From an uncultured Candidatus Saccharibacteria bacterium (GTDB lineage Bacteria > Patescibacteriota > Saccharimonadia > Saccharimonadales > AWTP1-31): a DNA stretch of 24,000 bases. The stretch lies in the NCBI GenBank assembly GCA_903946795.1, contig CAJAXB010000090.1:11640-35639 (forward strand). The letters are read 5' to 3'. The notes under the pieces were generated by a model. The model saw only the letters and a list, made by a program, of their open reading frames with translations. It was not told the origin of the DNA and did not search any database. The position numbers and the translations under genes are program-made. Of this stretch, positions 13,148 to 24,000 are shown piece after piece; position 1 is the stretch's first letter; the number at the start of each line of letters is the position of its first letter.

Positions 13148-15190
13148 CTACTTTTTTCTATACCATCTCGCTTGATTATCTACAGGACTTTCTTTTCCTG
13201 CCATTGGTGCTCTACCACATAACGAAGCTGAGGCTATTTCAGAATTAAAGCCCGCGATTTTACCAGCATACATATATGTATGTCCGGGTGTAAACGCCAC
13301 GTCACCTGGTTGCAAATCAGCAGTGCTATTGACCGTCAAGAGTTGCCAATTTTCTCTTGTCCATCGTTCTTGGCTTGTTGTATTTCCGCCTTTACCGTCA
13401 TAGTTATAGCGAGGATCAAAACCACTATCTATAATTACACGACTTACAAATGCTCCACAGTCGACTCCATCACAACCACCAATATATTGAGATTTTGATT
13501 TTGCGGCAGTAATTGCTGTAGCATATTCTGGTTTTCTATCTGTAGCGCCGGAAGTTCCTTTTGCTCTGTATTCAGGCCAAGCGTAACTTAAAATAGTATT
13601 TGTAATACCATCAGTGTTACCACTCGCAGTATTTTTCGAAACCGGACATCCGATAGATGGAATACTAGCCGGTGTAACTGGTAAGGCTCGTTTAATACCG
13701 TTAGCAATTCCAGCAGCATACTTTAGTTTTTGCTCGGGAGTTAAACCACCACTTCCTGTAGGGGATCCAGCTTCGTTATAGACCCAAGGCACAGAATCTG
13801 ACCAGAGTTGTACTAATGAAAGATTACCCCAGCTTGGAAGACCCCTAGACTGGGGGAAGTATTTCGCTTGGTCCGTATTAACTTTAGTGATTCCTTTTCC
13901 ACCGCGCTCAGCCTTGTCTCTTTCTTCATTAATAATATTGGCATAGGTGGCGCTTTTTTGGGCGGTTTCTTGGTTAGAGAAGCTTACTTTGACCGCTGGA
14001 TTGTCTTGAGACTGACGATAATGACCAACAACTTGCGGCCAGGTCTCTCCCCAATTTTCAAAGGCACCCGAGCCGCTATCGGTATGAATACTGACGGCAA
14101 TTGCAGCACCGGCATTTTTTGCTGCATCTACACGTTGACGTTTACTTACAGAATCATTTGTATTCGTTTTTAACATTACGACCTTATATCCTGCCGTTTC
14201 CAATACGGTTTTTAGAATATTTGAAACGTCTTGCACACTTGTTGCTTCAGGTTCGTTCACGTACTCTAAGTCACCTAAGCCTGTAACTGGATCTATATAC
14301 TGATTCACAACTCCTCCGTGCCCCGGGTCGATCGCAACAACTGGGCCTGTAGGGGTGGTTCCTTCTTGTGCGGTTGAGGTTCCACCGGTGCTCGGTGTAG
14401 CAGTGCCTTTTTTAGTGATATCAATAGCATCGCCCGCTTTTTCTACAATTTGATTAGTAATTTTTGTAACATTTTCAATGTAAACCGGAAGATTATTCTC
14501 AAAAGCTGGTGCATATGCTGGTTTACCTTCAGCACCGTTTAAGTAGCCCTGTAAGCCGGAGTCGAGTGCAAAAACCTCTGAAATATACTGAAACCAATCG
14601 TTAGGTTGACCAACCCGACCGCTAGAAGGATATGTTTTGGCATAGATACTCTCTTGAAAACTTGGCCATTGATACCACTTTCTTGTTCCCTTAAAAACAC
14701 CGGGTTGCCTGTCGGATGCGGTTCGTCCGAAGGCATTGTTGGACCCTTTATCTATCCCACCACTATTTGGAGCGGTACCCATTTGGGATTCCATGGTTGC
14801 CTGTGCGACTGCAAGTATTGGATTTATTCCTGCTCGCATTCCCCCTTGTACAAAATACTTGCCCATACCAACAAACGGTGAGTTACTCTTATAATTAACG
14901 GTATAGTCATCGATTGCTTGCGCTAGCTTAGCTGCATCTTTAATGTATGGAACACGTATAGGGTAATCATTTGCGGCATCGCCAGCAGTATTAGCGTTTG
15001 CGCCACCTGCATCGCCCTCGTTTTTACACGCTTCACTCTCATCATAATAAGCTGTATTGTTCTGAATAGCATCAAAATCTTGTTGAGTAAGAGCGTACGC
15101 TAATCCTGTATTTGATAGCGTAATAGCAAAAATAATAATCAACAATTGAAAGAGTTTAATTACCGAGCGGAAGTATTTAGATGATTTCAT
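13148..15190 (-). CDS. Secreted multi-domain peptidoglycan hydrolase: glucosaminidase/muramidase-like + N-acetylmuramoyl-L-alanine amidase (amidase_3) + NlpC/P60 endopeptidase
   Basis: - **Signal peptide:** MKSSKYFRSVIKLFQLLIIIFAITLSNTGLAYA.
- **Domain 1 (about 14420-14905):** GINPILAVAQATMESQMGT...SNNAFG.
- **Linker:** Thr/Ser/Gly-rich.
- **Domain 2 (about 13670-14341):** VVAIDPGHGG...AIAVSIHTDS.
- **Domain 3 (about 13151-13570):** GGCDGVDCGAFVSRVI...LQPGDVAFTPGHTYMYAG (Cys/His pair).
I chose ATG 15190, which has GGAGG 5 nt upstream, over the track's ATG at 15202. Confidence 0.8.
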   Translation of the reverse strand: MKSSKYFRSVIKLFQLLIIIFAITLSNTGLAYALTQQDFDAIQNNTAYYDESEACKNEGDAGGANANTAGDAANDYPIRVPYIKDAAKLAQAIDDYTVNYKSNSPFVGMGKYFVQGGMRAGINPILAVAQATMESQMGTAPNSGGIDKGSNNAFGRTASDRQPGVFKGTRKWYQWPSFQESIYAKTYPSSGRVGQPNDWFQYISEVFALDSGLQGYLNGAEGKPAYAPAFENNLPVYIENVTKITNQIVEKAGDAIDITKKGTATPSTGGTSTAQEGTTPTGPVVAIDPGHGGVVNQYIDPVTGLGDLEYVNEPEATSVQDVSNILKTVLETAGYKVVMLKTNTNDSVSKRQRVDAAKNAGAAIAVSIHTDSGSGAFENWGETWPQVVGHYRQSQDNPAVKVSFSNQETAQKSATYANIINEERDKAERGGKGITKVNTDQAKYFPQSRGLPSWGNLSLVQLWSDSVPWVYNEAGSPTGSGGLTPEQKLKYAAGIANGIKRALPVTPASIPSIGCPVSKNTASGNTDGITNTILSYAWPEYRAKGTSGATDRKPEYATAITAAKSKSQYIGGCDGVDCGAFVSRVIIDSGFDPRYNYDGKGGNTTSQERWTRENWQLLTVNSTADLQPGDVAFTPGHTYMYAGKIAGFNSEIASASLCGRAPMAGKESPVDNQARWYRKK

Positions 15191-15201
15191 GTGTACCTCC
15201 A

Positions 15202-18200
15202 TTATCTACCATCCACTGACCAATGCCATGTTTCTGATGGTAAATTTTTTAGGCCAAAATTCTGAGCGTTATTTTTTAACCATTTATAGCAAGCTGTTGA
15301 GGCATTACCACAACTACCAAAATCAAGCGCAAGCCCCATCTGGTGATTAGAATAGCCTGGGCGTGCAGTGGGAGGACTACATTGATCGGAAGGTTTTTGA
15401 TATATGTCATTTTGCGAGTCTCCACAATGTTTGCGCCTTAAGTCAATCTGAGAGTCCATAGACCTAAAGGAACTTCCAGATAGATTTACGCCATCTGCGC
15501 GTGCCGCATTCAGAAGATCATCCACATTCTTAGCAATCTGTGCATTCACCTGTCCCATGTTTTGCACTGAGCATACCCGTATTTTAAATAATTGACCGTT
15601 TTGATATCCATCCACAACACCTGCGTCAGTACCGGCAGTACACGTTAAGTTTGATGTATCACCCGCTGTGACAGCAGCTCCTGCAACTGCAGCGGTTTGT
15701 GGTTGTTCTGTAGTGCTACTTTGAGGTCCATTTTGTATATCAATCAACTGGTTTTGTACACTTGTATTACGCTTTGCAAGTCTCCATCTGAAAACAAGAT
15801 CGTTATATTGAGGGTTATTAATACCAAGATTCTGAGGTGAGCAATCACCCGCCGCAGTATTTACTTGGCCGTCTTGCTCTCTTTGTATGTCTCCGGATGA
15901 AAGTAAAGTACCCATTGTACTGCTATAGCATTTGGAGTACTTCCCTTCTATTTCTTCATACTTACCACTAGCTTCAAGTATTAGTTCATTTTCAATAGGG
16001 AAATAATCGGCATTATTTTGAATAATTGACTCTTCATCATTTGACCAACCCCATTGGACGATATTGTATTCCCCTGCACCACTTACTGACGCAGCCCTTA
16101 CTTTGCTTTTGTTTAAAATATTGACAAATATATTACCTGGTACAGACTTAAGCGATGTCAAGATTGAAGAAAACATTTTATCAAAAGCACCCTTTGTATT
16201 AAGGGTAGAAGATAAGGTCGTTGCAGAGCGAGCAATAAGGCTGTTAGGATTTGTTATCGCTAAATATTTTTCACTGAATGGTAGTTGACTATTCTTTTCC
16301 TGGATATAAGCAAGGTCGCTCATGTTTGAAGATAATACCTCTGGCTGGGTCATTGGTCGGCCGTATAATAGTTTTTGATTATTTTGCTGAGCGTATAAAT
16401 TTCCTCCCATATCTACTTGGTTGGCTATAGTTTCGCCCGTCTCAAGCCCATTATTTTGAGCATTAGAATAATTAAGCACCAGCATTTTAGCCAGTTCGGT
16501 TGCCCCAAGAATTAATACGCCATCCCGAAGTATTTTTTTAAAAAAAGATCCACCCGCGGACGCAACTTGCTTACTAATTACTTTTGCTGCAGCACGTCTA
16601 CTACCCGCTTCACCAACTACTCTCTCTAATTTACCTACTGTTTGCTTTGCTAAAAATTCTCCCAATTCCTTGACGCCACCTCCAGCAGCGGTCTTTAAAG
16701 CTCCTGGTGTTCCACCTCCCAATACAGTGAGTGCAACCTCGATGACTCCAAATGCTACACCAACACGAACATCAGTTACGACCTGACAAACGGAGCTAGC
16801 ATTATCAGTAAAGCTTTGAATGATATTAGGAGGCACAAATCCTCCCAAGACAACATTAAACAAACTAAAATTTCCCGTTGCTGTAGCTTGAGGAAGCGCA
16901 GCTGCATTAATCTCATTTGTAGGATCAATATTCTCACCACTTGCTCTACGTAATGGGACCGAGTCAGAAATGTCGCCGAGCTTACCATTAAGACCACCAA
17001 CAGCTTCGACTGTGGTTGCTCCAGCCTTTTGTTGGTCAGCGGCTGAACGCACCATCATATAATTACTGATTAGAGATGATTCTTTTACGTCAGTAGTTTT
17101 AGAGCTGTTTTCTATTGACCCATCAAATATTAGGCACAGCGGGAGCGCAACTGCGTAGACTGTTGAAACTGCACCAGTAACTGTCTTAAAGGCAGACGTA
17201 GGTTTTGATACTTCTTCATCAAACACTGTTGCTGCTTCTTCTTTGAGCTGTTCAGCATTTAATGTTTCGGATCCTTTATCATCAACTTTTTTCTTTATCT
17301 CTTCTTCAACTCGTTTTGCGTCAGTGCAAGTATCTGCGGATGCGCAATTAGAGTAATCAGGTTTAGTGCTTCTCTCAAAAGCTTTTTTTGATTCAAGATA
17401 TTCAGCGAATTGTTGCTTAATCCCCTGATATGTACTTCCTCTTTTTTCCCACCAATATAACTTGACACCTCTTTCACTGAGGATTTGTCTCATTACTTTA
17501 CCGCGGACAAGGCTATTGGTTCCTTTAAGTTCGGTTTCTAGCGTAGACTCTAGCTCGGCTGCGAAACGTAGTTTTTCCTTATATCCCTGTATAGGCTTAT
17601 ACCACTTAGTGTCGGTGGGCTCTAAAAGAGCACCATTTGGTAATTCCCAACCTTTAAAAACCTGTCTATTGCCGGGTAAAAAACGTCTCGGGGGGCCTTC
17701 TTCAAAGACAGGCGTTATTTTGCTATTAACCTCTTGATAAACTTTTTTTGGCCTTAGATTATTGTATCGATCAAGAGTAGACTTAACACTTGATTCATTC
17801 CACCGTTTTGACATAGCCGCAAATCCGGATTCGGTCAACGCTGCTGATTCTATACTTGATGCCATGTTTTGTGTGCTTGCAGATCTGAATGTTCGGGCCG
17901 TTCGAGCCATATTCCAAACAGTTACGTTTTCTGCTAAGTGTATGATTTTAGCACTGCTTAATGTAGATAAAAGAATTAATGCCAGTATAAGTACTCCACC
18001 ACCTGCACTACCTAAAAGAATGAGTGATTTACCTGAAAGCTTGCCAGAACCCTTCTTTTTAGTGGGTGTCTGTTTATAAGTAAAATTACCGTCGTCTTCT
18101 TGTTCTTGATTTACCAGCTTCTTTTCGCTTGTTTCAGCTGCAGAGCTCTGTGTAGATGAAGACCCCTCTTCTGCTTTTTTTAATTCTGAAGCAGAACTTT

Positions 18201-18297
18201 CTTTATTCTTGACAGGGGGCTGGTCCGACTCTTCATCGTATACTGAATGATAATACTGTTCATCATTATCAGGCTCTAGTTCTGTCATTGTCGGCAT
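15202..18297 (-). CDS. Large (1031 aa) T4SS-associated membrane protein in the VirB6/ConG/Orf15 position, with a C-terminal VanY-type (peptidase M15, LAS-fold) domain
   Basis: - **N-terminus:** acidic, Ser-rich, about 85 aa.
- **Hydrophobic helices:** SLILLGSAGGGVLILALILLSTL, GAVSTVYAVALPLCLIF and VRVGVAFGVIEVALTVLGG.
- **C-terminus (about 15205-15660):** LLNAARADGVNLSGSSFRSMDSQIDL...PGYSNHQMGLALDF...SETWHWS. This matches the SxHxxGxAxD and (E)xWH(W) Zn-ligand motifs of VanY/M15 peptidases.
Assignment as a channel subunit rests on gene order only. Confidence 0.6.
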   Translation of the reverse strand: MPTMTELEPDNDEQYYHSVYDEESDQPPVKNKESSASELKKAEEGSSSTQSSAAETSEKKLVNQEQEDDGNFTYKQTPTKKKGSGKLSGKSLILLGSAGGGVLILALILLSTLSSAKIIHLAENVTVWNMARTARTFRSASTQNMASSIESAALTESGFAAMSKRWNESSVKSTLDRYNNLRPKKVYQEVNSKITPVFEEGPPRRFLPGNRQVFKGWELPNGALLEPTDTKWYKPIQGYKEKLRFAAELESTLETELKGTNSLVRGKVMRQILSERGVKLYWWEKRGSTYQGIKQQFAEYLESKKAFERSTKPDYSNCASADTCTDAKRVEEEIKKKVDDKGSETLNAEQLKEEAATVFDEEVSKPTSAFKTVTGAVSTVYAVALPLCLIFDGSIENSSKTTDVKESSLISNYMMVRSAADQQKAGATTVEAVGGLNGKLGDISDSVPLRRASGENIDPTNEINAAALPQATATGNFSLFNVVLGGFVPPNIIQSFTDNASSVCQVVTDVRVGVAFGVIEVALTVLGGGTPGALKTAAGGGVKELGEFLAKQTVGKLERVVGEAGSRRAAAKVISKQVASAGGSFFKKILRDGVLILGATELAKMLVLNYSNAQNNGLETGETIANQVDMGGNLYAQQNNQKLLYGRPMTQPEVLSSNMSDLAYIQEKNSQLPFSEKYLAITNPNSLIARSATTLSSTLNTKGAFDKMFSSILTSLKSVPGNIFVNILNKSKVRAASVSGAGEYNIVQWGWSNDEESIIQNNADYFPIENELILEASGKYEEIEGKYSKCYSSTMGTLLSSGDIQREQDGQVNTAAGDCSPQNLGINNPQYNDLVFRWRLAKRNTSVQNQLIDIQNGPQSSTTEQPQTAAVAGAAVTAGDTSNLTCTAGTDAGVVDGYQNGQLFKIRVCSVQNMGQVNAQIAKNVDDLLNAARADGVNLSGSSFRSMDSQIDLRRKHCGDSQNDIYQKPSDQCSPPTARPGYSNHQMGLALDFGSCGNASTACYKWLKNNAQNFGLKNLPSETWHWSVDGR

Positions 18298-18306
18298 GGT
18301 AGTACC

Positions 18307-20220
18307 CTATGACCCCGGCCTTAAACGGTTCGTTAAATCGATCGTCCCTTCACCATTTTCGATAGCTCCCTGCTGCTCAATAGCCTGTACCTGAGCTGGG
18401 TTTGTAGTAATGAGACTTGTCTCAGTAGGACTTGCACTTATCTGTATGTGTACGTGGTTTTGTCCAGCAAAGAATAAGCCCTGGCCAATTGGGAATTGAC
18501 TTAAGCGTTTACGCTCTTCGCTGGTTAATTTAAAGACATCCGCAAGTACATCAATTGCTGATGCGGACTGTTTTAATAACAACTGCATGCTCGCGTTAGC
18601 AACAATAGCGCGACCCATTCGACTGCCCATAAAATCTTCAACATCTTGACTAATAGTTGTTATACCAAGATTGTATTTACGAGAACGCTTTGCCATGCTG
18701 AACATGAAACTGGCTGAATCTTCATATTTAAGAAGTTGCCACGCCTCATCAATAATAAGAATACGACGTTGTTTATCAGTTTTTGTCTTGTTCCAAATAA
18801 AGTTCAAAACAATATACATTGCAACAGGCCGAAGTTCATCTTCTAGATCACGAATATTGAACACCACCATAGGGTTATTTATATTCGTATTAGATTGTTG
18901 GCTGAATATGCCCGCAAAGGTCCCTGTAGTGTATTTCCTGAGTCTTTGAGCTAATTGCGGGCCCGTACCTCCCATATGAAGCAATACATCATAAAGATCA
19001 ACAATTGTTGGGGGCTGTGCATTATGCGTCAATGGATCATTTGTAATCCCTGCCTTTGCATACGTTTCAATGAGAGCAGCATCAAGATCGGACTCCTCTA
19101 CAGGACTGAGCGCGGGTAGAGCTGCAGCATTACCACCAACCATCTGTGCTTGCGCGCCGCCCATCATGAGCCTCAGTAGGCCGTGCAAAGTAATGATATT
19201 GCTACGTAATGCATTGTCTGCCTCGTCACTATCTACCACTTTAGGTAGATCAAAAGGATTAATTCTTGTCGTAGAATTAAGGCTTAGTCGAACGTATGCT
19301 CCACCTACAGCTTCACACATTCTCTGATATTCATTTTCAGGGTCTATAATAAAAATTTCAGTGCCAAACATGAGGCTACGCAGGGCTTCAAGTTTAACTG
19401 CAAAAGACTTACCTGCACCAGATTTAGCAAACACAATAGAATTTCCGTTCTCAAGACTAAATCGGTCAAAAATAACCAAGCCCGAGTTATGCATATTAAT
19501 GCCGTATAGAATACCGTTATCTTGCGTTAGTTCTGCGCTTGTAAATGGAAAACTTGTGCTAATAGCACCAGTGTTCATATTGCGCCGAATAAGAAGTTGA
19601 TCGGTAAATTGAGGCACTGTGCTATTAAAGGCCTGCTCTTGTTGAGAGGTGGCAACCTTTGAATATACTAGTTGCTGACCAAGTACAGACTCGATCTTAT
19701 GCGTCACAAACTCCAATTCGTCCATACTGGAAGTATAAATAGTGAAATACATACCAAATCTAAAGAACCGTTCTTCACCAACTTGTAGTTTGTCGCGCAT
19801 TTCTTCGGCATCTTGGATTGCTGCCTGCTTTCCAGGGTCTCGAGTCCGTCCTTTTTCTGCATCTATCTGCAATCCTGCTTCAAGTTGGGTAACTTTTTTT
19901 CTGAGATTTTCTAAGACAATCTGGCTTTCAACTGGATATATATAAAGTGAGAGATCCATGACCTCGTCCATATTCACCATACTACTTAACCAGCCGGTGT
20001 AGACCTGTCTTGGATAGCCATAAACGTAAAAGGTTCTCGCGAATCGTGTCCCTAGATGAAATAAGCCATTTTCGTATACTAATGAACTTGGGGCAATAAA
20101 GTCTCGGAGTGCAGTGATACCTTTCTGAAAAGCCTCTTGTACCTCTTTTTCCTCCTGAGCTCTTTGGGCCTGTGCTGCAGCAACTGGATCATTTGGTTGT
20201 TTGTTTTTTCCAAATGCCAT
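18307..20220 (-). CDS. virB4: Type IV secretion ATPase, VirB4 family (Gram-positive PrgJ/ConE/Orf16-like)
   Basis: 637 aa. The N-terminal domain reads IAPSSLVYENGLFHLGTRFARTFYVYGYPRQVYTGWLSSMV. Walker A is VFAKSGAGKSFAVK (about 19405-19428). Walker B is RRILIIDEAWQLL (about 18736-18768). ITTISQDVEDF lies downstream. The start overlaps the upstream stop (TAATG at 20220). Confidence 0.9.
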   Translation of the reverse strand: MAFGKNKQPNDPVAAAQAQRAQEEKEVQEAFQKGITALRDFIAPSSLVYENGLFHLGTRFARTFYVYGYPRQVYTGWLSSMVNMDEVMDLSLYIYPVESQIVLENLRKKVTQLEAGLQIDAEKGRTRDPGKQAAIQDAEEMRDKLQVGEERFFRFGMYFTIYTSSMDELEFVTHKIESVLGQQLVYSKVATSQQEQAFNSTVPQFTDQLLIRRNMNTGAISTSFPFTSAELTQDNGILYGINMHNSGLVIFDRFSLENGNSIVFAKSGAGKSFAVKLEALRSLMFGTEIFIIDPENEYQRMCEAVGGAYVRLSLNSTTRINPFDLPKVVDSDEADNALRSNIITLHGLLRLMMGGAQAQMVGGNAAALPALSPVEESDLDAALIETYAKAGITNDPLTHNAQPPTIVDLYDVLLHMGGTGPQLAQRLRKYTTGTFAGIFSQQSNTNINNPMVVFNIRDLEDELRPVAMYIVLNFIWNKTKTDKQRRILIIDEAWQLLKYEDSASFMFSMAKRSRKYNLGITTISQDVEDFMGSRMGRAIVANASMQLLLKQSASAIDVLADVFKLTSEERKRLSQFPIGQGLFFAGQNHVHIQISASPTETSLITTNPAQVQAIEQQGAIENGEGTIDLTNRLRPGS

Positions 20221-21164
20221 TACTGCATTTCCCTTTCTAATGAAGGTTGAGGTGCCTGACCTATACCTTTCGTTACCACATCGGCTGTAACCGCGCTAAA
20301 ATTTTTCATTTTTTGTCGGGTTGCAGTATCAGGATTGTAACTATCGTAGTATAGCTCAATCAATTCTTGCGTATCGAGCGGTAGGCCTTGTACTCCGCAT
20401 TGCATCAAGCCACCAAGTACCGCCTGAACTCTGTTGCGCAGCTCATCTTTTGCCTTGTTTAAGTCATTTTCGTTGATAGTAATTTGTTTTTGTCCTTTTT
20501 TGCTAAATAGTGCTTGCACACCTGTAAACAAGCCCTTACTTGCAGTTAAGGGGTTTTGAATATCGATAGTGGGATAATAAGGAATGACTACAAAAAATTG
20601 TTTATCCATGATGTTAACTTGTTGTCCTATGGTAACCATATAGTTTATATAGTCTTCCATTAAAACGGCAAGCAACATATTATCATGCTCAGTGCGTATC
20701 TTATCGAGTTTAGTAATATATGGTGTAAGGTCAACTTTCTTAGAGCGAATATTTATTTGAATTGGAAAATAGAGAGAATTGAGAAAACCTTGATAGCTAA
20801 ATTCAACAGCTTCTCTTTCCTCAGGGCTCATAAGATCAAAGTTAATTGCCCGCGTCTGGATTACTGAGCGGTAGCTGCCGTCATTCATAATAACGATGCC
20901 GTCACGTATTTCGGCTATCTGCAGTGCATTTTGCGTGCTGTTGGGGTTTGACTTAGGTGCGTCCTGTAATCCAGCTCCTGCAGCTGCTGTACTTTGACGA
21001 GCTTGGGGATCGTATGCACTACCCGGAACATTTGTAACTGGTACGGCGCCTGGCATAGGGTTAGCTTGAGAAGCGATACCTGAAGCTGGCCTACCCGGAA
21101 CACTTCCCTGCGGCATTGTAGGATTATTGAAAGGACCTGATTGTTGATTATAAGAAGGATTCAT
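20220..21164 (-). CDS. T4SS-associated hypothetical protein; disordered Pro/Gln/Asn-rich N-terminus plus a domain resembling a stand-alone VirB4/TraC N-terminal domain
   Basis: 314 aa. After about 80 low-complexity residues comes IAEIRDGIVIMNDGSYRSVIQTRAINFDLMSPEEREAVEFSYQGFLNSLYFPIQINIRSKKVDLTPYITKL. I recognise this pattern from the N-termini of Gram-positive VirB4-type ATPases. It has no Walker motifs. It is translationally coupled to virB4. Confidence 0.5.
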   Translation of the reverse strand: MNPSYNQQSGPFNNPTMPQGSVPGRPASGIASQANPMPGAVPVTNVPGSAYDPQARQSTAAAGAGLQDAPKSNPNSTQNALQIAEIRDGIVIMNDGSYRSVIQTRAINFDLMSPEEREAVEFSYQGFLNSLYFPIQINIRSKKVDLTPYITKLDKIRTEHDNMLLAVLMEDYINYMVTIGQQVNIMDKQFFVVIPYYPTIDIQNPLTASKGLFTGVQALFSKKGQKQITINENDLNKAKDELRNRVQAVLGGLMQCGVQGLPLDTQELIELYYDSYNPDTATRQKMKNFSAVTADVVTKGIGQAPQPSLEREMQ

Positions 21165-23019: not shown

Positions 23020-24000
23020 CTATAAGCCAGGAGGATTTAGTTGGGGCCCCACTGTGCCGCTACCTGCGTCCCTTGCGTTTTGTTCAGCAAACTGTTGTCC
23101 TCCCGCTTGCTCATAGGAGCCAGCTCTACTACGTACTTCTGTTGATAATACATCAGCATCCGCTCCCGTACTCCTAGATAATTGAGCACCAAGCTGCCGG
23201 TCTGTAGTTAGTTGAGAAGATGTATCGATTCCAACACTACTGAGCATATCAGTAATAGCAACTCGATTGTCTGAAGAAGCACCTCCCATGCTCGTGCGTA
23301 AAGATACCATTTGTGCTGCTATTGTTGTTGCGCTATCTGCAGCCTGATTTGCTTCTACTGTAAGTCTATTGGCATCGGCTTGATTTCCGGCCTGTCGCGC
23401 AGCTTCTGCTTGATGCTGTAATTCTCGAGCTCTATTACTATTGCCTCGATAATCTTGCGCTAGCTGAGTCGTCATTGTCCTAAAAGGATCTGCTTTCATG
23501 CTGAGCATCGCTCCAGGTCCGCCTTGTTCAAATGCTAATTGACGCATATTTTCGTTCGTCTGAGCGTCGGTAACATCTCCAGCTTCAAGATTCTGCATCG
23601 CATCAAACATAGCGGTATGGCTTGGTGTTCCCAGATCAGTTCTTCCTGCCTGATTAGACGCTGATTTTGCTGATGCAATCATTGCATTTCTTACTGCGAC
23701 ATCATCTGAGGCACCTGCTATTTCTCTTAACATATCGGCGTGAGTATCGTAGCCAGTTCCTGTACGTGCGCGGCCTAATGCAGATGCAATATTAACCGCA
23801 TCCCTCGAGCCACTGTTCTGTGCTGCTTGGACCATGCCCACCGCGCCTGCTAATTGATCATCACGGTATCTACCGGTCGCTCGTAGTCGTCTTTCAATGT
23901 CTTGAGCGCTCGTGCCATACCTGGCAGCTTCCAACATATGATCATCATTGGCAATTGCCCGAAAGGCCTCATTCTTTTCTAGAAGCTCTTGACCTTGTCG
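23020..24000 (-). CDS. C-terminal part of a larger Ala/Gln/Arg/Gly/Ser-rich hypothetical protein; the ORF stays open to the window edge
   Basis: The track starts it at Met 23937, but the frame has no stop through 24000 (my translation upstream reads RQGQELLEKNEAFRAIANDDHM). It has no TM and no nucleotide-binding motif in the visible part. It is noticeably more GC-rich than its neighbours. Confidence 0.55.
   Translation of the reverse strand, partial: RQGQELLEKNEAFRAIANDDHMLEAARYGTSAQDIERRLRATGRYRDDQLAGAVGMVQAAQNSGSRDAVNIASALGRARTGTGYDTHADMLREIAGASDDVAVRNAMIASAKSASNQAGRTDLGTPSHTAMFDAMQNLEAGDVTDAQTNENMRQLAFEQGGPGAMLSMKADPFRTMTTQLAQDYRGNSNRARELQHQAEAARQAGNQADANRLTVEANQAADSATTIAAQMVSLRTSMGGASSDNRVAITDMLSSVGIDTSSQLTTDRQLGAQLSRSTGADADVLSTEVRSRAGSYEQAGGQQFAEQNARDAGSGTVGPQLNPPGL

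Follow-up and report, generated by a model that had tools for sequence, protein, structure and literature searches.

A conserved protein of the origin-adjacent type IV secretion operon of Saccharimonadales with an interchangeable C-terminal enzyme, a VanY/M15B-type domain in the member described here

We analyzed a 24,000-nucleotide stretch of contig CAJAXB010000090.1 from an uncultured Candidatus Saccharibacteria genome (called the window below), and in particular a 1031-residue open reading frame (ORF) on its minus strand that is encoded in the operon of a type IV secretion system (T4SS) beside the replication origin (Table 1). Comparison of this protein with its relatives showed that it belongs to a family in which a conserved scaffold of about 860 residues carries an interchangeable and optional C-terminal enzyme. 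In the protein of the window, this enzyme is a zinc carboxypeptidase domain of the VanY/M15B type that is catalytically complete as judged by its residues, and the protein is not the VirB6/ConG equivalent of the operon, its resemblance to that slot being positional only. Overall, it seems probable to us that the protein serves an origin-adjacent, Gram-positive-type T4SS as a membrane-anchored accessory scaffold and displays an optional envelope-modifying enzyme outside the cell.

A preliminary description of this DNA, made from the letters alone, had proposed that the last ~150 residues form a VanY/M15 (LAS) metallopeptidase, and profile, sequence, and structure searches all confirmed this assignment for residues ~881 to 1031. 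The Pfam VanY model (PF02557) matched residues 916 to 1017 with an E value of 5.9e-13 and 49.2 bits (gathering cutoff, 25), and a phmmer search of PDB sequences returned VanY-B (5hnm, 5zhf, and 6a6a; E ~6e-9) with the SGxR and SxHxxGxAxD blocks aligned. An AlphaFold2 model of the whole protein was built from a 39-sequence alignment (mean predicted local distance difference test score [pLDDT] of 68, predicted template modeling score of 0.59), and in this model the domain had block-mean pLDDT values of ~84 to 95, apart from one loop block at 67. Foldseek matched it to VanY-B, BaLdcB, pneumococcal LdcB/DacB, and VanXYc at a probability of 1.00 (5hnm, 5zhf, 6a6a, 4mph, and 4oxd). The motifs SGSSFRS (residues 940 to 946), SNHQMGLALD (983 to 992), and ETWHW (1022 to 1026) supply a complete predicted catalytic set (R945, H985, D992, E1022, and H1025), and thus the M15/LAS profile match and the His/Asp/His triad are both present, together with the catalytic Glu and the Arg block. 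The best NCBIfam matches were to VanY-B/G, LdcB, and VanY-A, all far under the equivalog cutoffs (39.5 versus 400 bits for VanY-B/G and 32.3 versus 275 bits for LdcB). In the rest of the protein, Pfam found nothing at an E value of ≤1 except a chance match of 15 residues, and PHROGs profiles run on the full protein left the body unmatched and gave only VanY-type matches. In line with this, the precomputed Pfam annotation of the homologues lists tail domains only.

The fused domain is better conserved than the protein that carries it. In the closest relative, identity is 95% in the tail versus 84% in the body, and in six further close relatives it is 63 to 75% versus 41 to 53%; P0010 is the sole one of the eight in which the tail is the less conserved part (39% versus 46%). 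That the tail is the better conserved part in seven of eight close relatives argues for a functioning enzyme. Family-wide, the Glu and His of ExxH are retained in 21 of the 27 tails that have SxHxxGxAxD. A recent insertion of the tail was considered and rejected, its base composition not being anomalous. The same genome also encodes a canonical stand-alone VanY/LdcB of 240 residues (SGYRS, SEHQTGYAFD, and EPWH) that is 31% identical to the fused domain; it lies tail to tail with a 432-residue ORF, and the two are probably a housekeeping pair for stem-peptide trimming (Table 1). Since the genome has this ordinary stand-alone VanY, the fused copy would be an extra, specialized one. Foldseek searches of the viral database BFVD also matched phage M15B proteins, the best match being a 776-residue "putative hydrolase" of an uncultured marine phage (333 columns, E = 7e-7). 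At 333 columns, the alignment is about twice as long as the VanY domain, and part of the conserved ectodomain may therefore occur in phage lysins.

The enzyme at the C terminus differs from one family member to the next. When 141 representatives were cut after the position of query residue 860, the tail was essentially absent in 60 (43%) and at least 100 residues long in 77. One cluster of 20 representatives, which includes the protein of the window, has VanY tails; a second, LAS-like cluster, also of 20, has SxHYxGxAVD without ExxH and without a Pfam match; and a third, of 21, has M23 and/or Exo_endo_phos (EEP) tails. The combinations in the third cluster comprise EEP with M23, EEP with a PF04185 phosphoesterase (the phospholipase C/acid phosphatase family), and two EEP domains with a tyrosine phosphatase. 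Further tail types are weak M23, M14 zinc carboxypeptidase, Beta-lactamase2, and GH16, and GDSL (GDSL/SGNH) tails occur together with VanY at one locus (L015) and alone in genome G356 (1106 residues from the first start codon). Four proteins of 1290 to 1710 residues (P0072, P0096, P0097, and P0110) have multienzyme tails and form one well-supported clade of a FastTree phylogeny inferred from the body alone (752 columns). On this tree, tail type changes 58 times, compared with a mean of 74 for shuffled labels and a possible minimum of 14; the VanY type alone requires at least 17 changes for 20 rows when only well-supported branches are counted, and many supported sister pairs carry different tails. 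At the tail-less loci, a search for a separate downstream ORF with the LAS motifs found none. Absence of the tail from 43% of representatives, and of a separate LAS gene from the tail-less loci, suggests that the enzyme is dispensable for the core role of the scaffold.

The scaffold itself is widespread within one order. An exhaustive phmmer search of 1.84 billion representative sequences yielded 505 representative clusters at an E value of ≤1e-30, aligned over residues ~20 to 860, and a second, word-indexed search with the family alignment added almost nothing. The family proteins range from ~370 to 1710 residues, the shortest being fragments, and Cys388 and Cys504 are invariant across the family. 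All named homologues come from Candidatus Saccharibacteria/Saccharimonadales. In a phylum sample of 301 genomes, body matches were confined to the order Saccharimonadales. In a sample of 81 genomes of this order (about 70 families), 71 had a body match and at least 24 had a VanY-like match inside an ORF of at least 800 residues. The fusion is therefore old and common rather than peculiar to the source genome. No match to the body was found by tblastn among 72,556 plasmids. In three relatives, the family gene contains a single in-frame stop codon (TAG in G233:C6:142581-145190, TGA in G301:C16:5026-7707, and TAA in G360:C37:382-3036); such genes may be pseudogenes or split genes, or the stops may be sequencing errors.

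The position of the gene is constant. With each GTDB species represented by one genome, a pattern scan gave 19 loci, all from Saccharibacteria and from different Saccharimonadales species. In all 19, VirB4 is followed by the family gene, with recF-dnaN-dnaA on the opposite strand beyond it wherever the contig is long enough. Both PrgI and the TrsD-like gene can be seen in 15 of the 19 loci, and a TrbL-like gene heads the operon in 13, flank permitting. By BLASTP, the ORF that follows the family gene matches the wall hydrolase of the window in 11 of 19 loci; the ORF in the remaining eight was not identified. No small variable, immunity-like gene was noted directly downstream in a limited check of these loci, 11 of which have the hydrolase there and eight an ORF that was not identified.

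The predicted layout of the protein agrees with most of what the preliminary description had read from the letters. An acidic N terminus is disordered in the model (pLDDT <50 over residues 1 to 100); the three or four hydrophobic helices correspond to one strong segment (92 to 114) and three that are conserved in the family and marginal (373 to 391, 510 to 530, and 589 to 611), to which a faint stretch at 471 to 496 can be added; and the large soluble regions have no known fold, the body being unmatched by Foldseek in the PDB. Most of the near-invariant and invariant residues (Y678, S686, Q748, E755, N770, C790, C819, R837, and R839) cluster between residues 612 and 852, within which residues 740 to 850 are predicted with pLDDT values of >90 as a compact helical domain that has no solved analogue. 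Folding the conserved ectodomain alone (residues 596 to 862, 17 sequences) gave a poorer model (pLDDT 57) and no PDB match. On average across the family, the 15 residues preceding the first transmembrane helix (TM1) contain 5.4 Lys/Arg and the 15 following it contain 1.0; the loop at 531 to 588 is 15% Lys/Arg family-wide, and the region past residue 611 is poor in these residues. Together, these two positive-inside constraints are compatible only with arrangements of three spans (TM1, 510 to 530, and 589 to 611) or five (the same plus 373 to 391 and 471 to 496), both of which put residues 612 to 1031 outside the membrane. In the three-span layout, all twelve cysteines would be extracytoplasmic, including Cys388, Cys504, and the pairs 790/819, 886/909, 958/973, and 996/1003. 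Both the positive-inside rule and the conserved Cys pairs, which lie in the ectodomain and tail, thus favor a C terminus outside the cell, and the attached domains, which mostly belong to envelope-acting families, point the same way.

We propose that the acidic N-terminal tail lies in the cytoplasm, that the protein would be anchored in the membrane by its strong hydrophobic segment and by two to four weak ones, and that a conserved, Cys-bearing helical ectodomain without a known fold would follow, from which a flexible linker of ~30 residues would hold the VanY/LdcB-type zinc carboxypeptidase outside the membrane. There, the module would most likely strip the terminal D-Ala from stem peptides beside the secretion machine (or work as an LD-carboxypeptidase), and it may cooperate with the adjacent glucosaminidase/amidase such that the wall opened at the apparatus or at the epibiont-host contact would not be re-cross-linked. 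We infer the topology, the association with the machine, the substrate, and whose wall would be cut (the epibiont's own or that of its host). Several points weigh against this proposal. A four-span topology, with all four family-conserved segments crossing the membrane, would leave the enzyme in the cytoplasm, and the AlphaFold2 model, moderate in its confidence overall (mean pLDDT 68), is at its weakest around the candidate spans (residues 522 to 594). The tie to the secretion machine is deduced from operon membership alone, and homology to the Southlakia epibionticum protein discussed below is drawn from position, size, and the names of Foldseek neighbors. In addition, 43% of representatives lack a tail, the tail-less loci have no separate downstream LAS gene, and the EEP, phospholipase C-like, and tyrosine phosphatase tails fit poorly with a role purely in remodeling the producer's own wall.

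The last of these points bears on an alternative that we regard as possible though unlikely, namely, that the protein is directed at the host. The body would dock in or beside the T4SS and span the epibiont wall, and the exchangeable enzyme would attack the host envelope, opening or maintaining the contact; peptidoglycan stems, lipids, glycans, and phosphoesters would be its targets, and the turnover of tails would reflect different host envelopes. Tail types are indeed scattered over the body tree almost like shuffled labels (58 versus 74 changes), and the EEP, PF04185 phosphoesterase, tyrosine phosphatase, GDSL lipase, and GH16 tails have no obvious role at the producer's own wall. Consistent with this alternative, a housekeeping VanY is already present in the genome, and the T4SS, which lacks a coupling protein and a relaxase, is essential for epibiotic growth in a relative (see below). 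However, the protein appears to be anchored in the producer's membrane, with no cleavage or release signal identified, and a VanY carboxypeptidase alone does not lyse walls. The absence of a visible tail-linked immunity gene, the conserved wall hydrolase downstream in the 11 loci identified by BLAST, and the 43% of members with no tail at all likewise speak against a host-directed weapon.

The preliminary description had instead taken the protein for the VirB6/ConG channel subunit, which would make it a highly divergent member of that group that gained a C-terminal peptidase. The position stands: the gene follows virB4 and precedes a wall hydrolase, which resembles the order conE-conG-cwlT of ICEBs1. 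Its product is also a large membrane protein with extensive hydrophilic parts, like the "extended VirB6" proteins. The identity does not stand. The 1031-residue protein had no match to TrbL (PF04610), TrbL_3 (PF19590), or VirB6 in Pfam at an E value of ≤1, and none in NCBIfam; the family profile found VanY/LdcB and no T4SS chain among PDB sequences; and Foldseek of the full model against the PDB recovered the VanY domain and no T4SS chain, the best non-VanY E value being 0.6. The body does not form a polytopic core of five or more helices, since one helix is strong, three are marginal and conserved, and one is faint; the preliminary description had likewise remarked that 3 or 4 clear helices differ from the 6- to 7-span topology of VirB6/ConG. 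Moreover, a separate polytopic protein heads the operon, and hhalign found no relation between its family and that of the 1031-residue protein (probability of 0.4%). We therefore consider it improbable that the protein is a channel subunit of the VirB6 type, with only a single strongly hydrophobic helix and a TrbL_3-annotated protein heading the operon in 13 of 19 loci. The genes of S. epibionticum that have VirB6-like structural annotations are likewise others, SEML1_0011 and SEML1_0013 (Wang et al. 2023, PMC10633639).

The polytopic protein was recovered by joining two contigs. A six-frame search of the genome with PF04610 gave a weak, near-full-length match (E = 0.036, positions 4 to 201 of 215) to an ORF on contig C22 (locus L001) that combines a signal peptide with a Cys-rich ectodomain and a series of very hydrophobic helices. 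The contig of the window (C90) ends exactly at the window end, and the 2.5-kb contig C22 carries the first 712 residues of a 991-residue protein; the C22 ORF ends in 46 residues identical to the start of the open ORF at 23020-24000. Consistent with this join, residues 666 to 991 of a database copy of 991 residues on a 67-kb contig (P0164) are identical to the window ORF (326/326). Nearly all of the 120 listed homologues of P0164 (P0164 to P0283) have a precomputed Pfam annotation of PF19590.5, which is TrbL_3. TrbL_3 was not recovered on the polytopic protein and its relatives with the older PF19590.4, NCBIfam, or PDB profiles, and a genome-wide search with PF19590.4 found nothing; the discrepancy looks like a difference between model versions, one that affects VirB6 calls in Saccharibacteria. 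Because of the PF19590.5 annotation, the weak PF04610 match, the architecture, and the literature, the 991-residue protein is the probable VirB6 (TrbL_3-type) subunit of the operon.

It is very improbable that the protein is an ordinary wall-maturation carboxypeptidase functionally unlinked to the neighboring secretion genes, for although VanY/LdcB enzymes are commonly housekeeping and the catalytic set here is canonical, an 850-residue body is conserved and holds a constant operon position in the loci of 19 species, many family members have no peptidase, a separate canonical VanY lies next to the 432-residue DD-carboxypeptidase-like ORF, and the essentiality of the positional counterpart concerns epibiotic growth and is shared by its whole locus.

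That counterpart is SEML1_0007 of S. epibionticum, a protein of 1113 residues listed as "hypothetical" in Table S2 of Wang et al. (2023, Cell; PMC10633639), with an ECOD Hedgehog/DD-peptidase domain at residues 951 to 1105. Its best Foldseek neighbors are named "Peptidase M15B domain-containing" and "Peptidase M23 domain-containing," and its Tn-seq (transposon sequencing) classes in Table S1 are GD/ES/ES, making it essential for epibiotic growth (Wang et al. 2023, PMC10633639). The whole T4SS locus, SEML1_0006 to SEML1_0019, is essential for epibiotic growth of S. epibionticum, and a coupling protein and relaxase are lacking (Wang et al. 2023, PMC10633639). SEML1_0007 occupies the same slot, after the VirB4 protein SEML1_0008, before the three-domain hydrolase SEML1_0006, and beside dnaA. 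It is of similar size, has a C-terminal Hedgehog/DD-peptidase domain, and has the M15B and M23 neighbors that the family predicts. We therefore judge the 1031-residue protein to be its counterpart by position and architecture; the difference lies in the annotation, SEML1_0007 being recorded as hypothetical only, with neither a scaffold nor an exchangeable tail described. The saccharibacterial T4SS is related to monoderm conjugation machinery and often lies beside the origin (Quinonero-Coronel et al. 2025).

The preliminary description was aware of no described fusion of this kind. The source genome is not alone in having it, since at least 24 of 81 sampled genomes of the order do, and the domain of SEML1_0007 is in Table S2; no main text among those searched discusses it. 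Neither a carboxypeptidase nor a scaffold is mentioned in the main texts of Wang et al. (2023) and Quinonero-Coronel et al. (2025), nor in the 2025 T4SS nomenclature review or the TM7x transcriptome preprint, and a full-text search added nothing. The domain call is thus already on record in the supplement; as far as we searched, the separation from VirB6, the definition of the family, and the polymorphism of the tail are undescribed.

In the context of known enzymes, the C-terminal ~150 residues have the fold, the SxHxxGxAxD and ExxH motifs, and the SGxR block in common with VanY-B and LdcB (DacB) of M15B (PF02557). Those proteins are of ~180 to 280 residues with a signal peptide or single anchor, whereas here the domain ends an 880-residue scaffold in a secretion operon and has a shorter loop between the last helix and ExxH. 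PrgK (pCF10), CwlT (ICEBs1), TraG (pIP501), and TcpG are likewise encoded in secretion operons, are membrane anchored or secreted, and have domains that cleave peptidoglycan, and PrgK carries an M23/LytM-type domain, as do some relatives of the 1031-residue protein. However, these hydrolases combine an SLT or muramidase domain with CHAP or NlpC/P60 and have no large conserved scaffold, and the literature examined does not credit them with stem-peptide carboxypeptidase activity. Pfam and Foldseek revealed no glycan-strand-cleaving domain (SLT, lysozyme, or muramidase) in the 1031-residue protein; one is present in the neighboring gene, and it is there that the operon has its PrgK/CwlT-like hydrolase, as a separate gene at 13148-15190. 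VirB6, TrbL, ConG, and the extended VirB6 proteins are also large T4SS-operon membrane proteins with big hydrophilic parts, and the gene position is conG-like, but there is no sequence, profile, or fold relation, clear spans are far fewer, and the operon has a TrbL_3-type protein of its own. A conserved body of ~860 residues with unrelated tails recalls polymorphic toxins (Rhs, LXG, and evolved VgrG), in which a conserved N-terminal delivery part precedes a variable C-terminal enzyme. In contrast to these, no tail-linked immunity gene was seen, the body is predicted to be membrane anchored, the tails are mostly of envelope-remodeling types and not classical toxins, and 43% of members are tail-less.

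According to the literature, no T4SS before the saccharibacterial one had been shown to be essential for the growth of its owner. One of its essential genes, hitherto listed only as "hypothetical," can now be given a conserved scaffold with a plug-in enzyme site, and the assignment of subunits in such operons is corrected, the 1031-residue gene not being virB6. The protein may also offer a handle on the epibiont-host interface that can be tested in a genetically tractable relative. If the host-directed reading were true, the scaffold would hold a host-tailored enzyme (a stem-peptide carboxypeptidase, endopeptidase, lipase or phospholipase, phosphatase, or glycanase) against the envelope of the bacterium that carries the epibiont, and tail type would help to determine which hosts can be parasitized.

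Table 1. Coordinates of the 1031-residue ORF, its segments, and neighboring genes (window positions unless a locus is named)
Feature	Coordinates	Strand	Basis
Whole ORF (P0001), 1031 aa, stop-free; Saccharimonadales-wide family, encoded in T4SS operon	15202..18297	-	
aa 1-91, acidic, disordered N-terminal tail with Lys-rich end (KKKGSGKLSGKS), predicted cytoplasmic	18025..18297	-	pLDDT <50 over aa 1-100
aa 92-114, TM1, sole strong transmembrane helix	17956..18024	-	Kyte-Doolittle 2.59; family average 2.44; summed Hessa-scale -2.5
aa 115-372, charged, mostly helical, small beta hairpin, Cys318/Cys324; fold without match	17182..17955	-	
aa 373-391, conserved hydrophobic segment 2 (VALPLCLIF) with invariant Cys388; may span the membrane or be a buried helix	17125..17181	-	Hydropathy, family alignment
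aa 392-509, conserved, Lys/Arg-poor (SAADQQKAG...RASG), faint hydrophobic stretch 471-496, invariant Cys504	16771..17124	-	
aa 510-530, conserved hydrophobic segment 3	16708..16770	-	Family-averaged hydropathy 1.56; summed Hessa-scale 4.1
aa 531-588, Gly/Ala/Lys/Arg-rich low-confidence loop, 11 Lys/Arg versus 4 Asp/Glu, predicted cytoplasmic	16534..16707	-	pLDDT, charge count
aa 589-611, conserved hydrophobic segment 4, last candidate span, basic flank N-terminal	16465..16533	-	
aa 612-852, most conserved part of the family (YNIVQWGW...FRWRLAKRN), helical	15742..16464	-	Alignment and AlphaFold2 model
aa 853-880, low-complexity Gln/Ser/Thr/Ala linker; junction where tails of relatives diverge	15658..15741	-	pLDDT <50 for aa 853-875
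aa 881-1031, predicted VanY/LdcB-type (MEROPS M15B, LAS fold) zinc carboxypeptidase domain; Cys pairs 886/909, 958/973, 996/1003	15205..15657	-	
Arg945 of SGSSFRS, aligned to the arginine of VanY-B SGYRT	15463..15465	-	
His985-Asp992 (SNHQMGLALD), predicted first two zinc ligands	15322..15345	-	
Glu1022-His1025 (ETWH), predicted catalytic Glu and third zinc ligand	15223..15234	-	
Secreted wall hydrolase, Glucosaminidase + Amidase_3, 684 aa, downstream neighbor	13148..15190	-	Pfam
VirB4-type ATPase, C-terminal part, 637 aa, upstream neighbor of the 1031-aa ORF	18307..20220	-	NCBIfam conju_CD1110 2e-104; Pfam TraG P-loop
314-aa protein, weak TrsD/VirB4 N-terminal similarity	20220..21164	-	NCBIfam profile search
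PrgI (VirB3-like), 339 aa	21188..22207	-	Pfam PF12666, 7.8e-11
Lys-rich basic protein, 234 aa	22256-22960	-	
C-terminal 326 residues (666-991) of the 991-aa polytopic VirB6 candidate	23020..24000	-	Contig overlap; P0164 identity
Stand-alone VanY/LdcB, 240 aa	Locus L002 (contig C73) 1228-1950	+	
432-aa ORF, by eye resembling a serine DD-carboxypeptidase	Locus L002 (contig C73) 1954-3252	-	

The source genome comprises 767 kb in 95 contigs and is ~95% complete. The T4SS operon lies on the minus strand, convergent with recF, and reads, in order, the ORF at 23020-24000, the 234-residue basic protein, the 339-residue PrgI, the 314-residue TrsD-like protein, the 637-residue VirB4, the 1031-residue protein, the 684-residue hydrolase, and two small proteins. 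The succession of PrgI, a split VirB4, the 1031-residue ORF, and a glucosaminidase/amidase_3 hydrolase is as the preliminary description had given it. Because the 991-residue protein is encoded upstream of the Lys-rich 234-residue gene, the latter is not the first of the operon. The stop codon of the 1031-residue ORF (TAA, 15204-15202) overlaps an ATG at 15202, and a GGAGG at 15200-15196 is followed, five bases on, by an ATG at 15190, all on the minus strand; the ATG at 15190, behind the GGAGG, is the likely start of the hydrolase, in preference to the ATG at 15202. The preliminary description had suggested that the carboxypeptidase would add a fourth wall-modifying activity to the operon; in the neighboring hydrolase, only two Pfam domains were confirmed. 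A third domain, of the NlpC/P60 type, was sought in the hydrolase and not confirmed, its C-terminal 221 residues (13151-13813) having no Pfam match at an E value of ≤0.1, and the full-length hydrolase had no match among PDB sequences.

The window spans the replication origin region, flanked by rnpA, yidC, and jag to one side and by dnaA, dnaN, and recF to the other. In two of the loci from other genomes, a gene of this region is split into two adjacent ORFs, recF in L006 (13822-15206) and dnaA in L022 (15275-16172); these are probably frameshifts or assembly errors in metagenome-assembled genomes.

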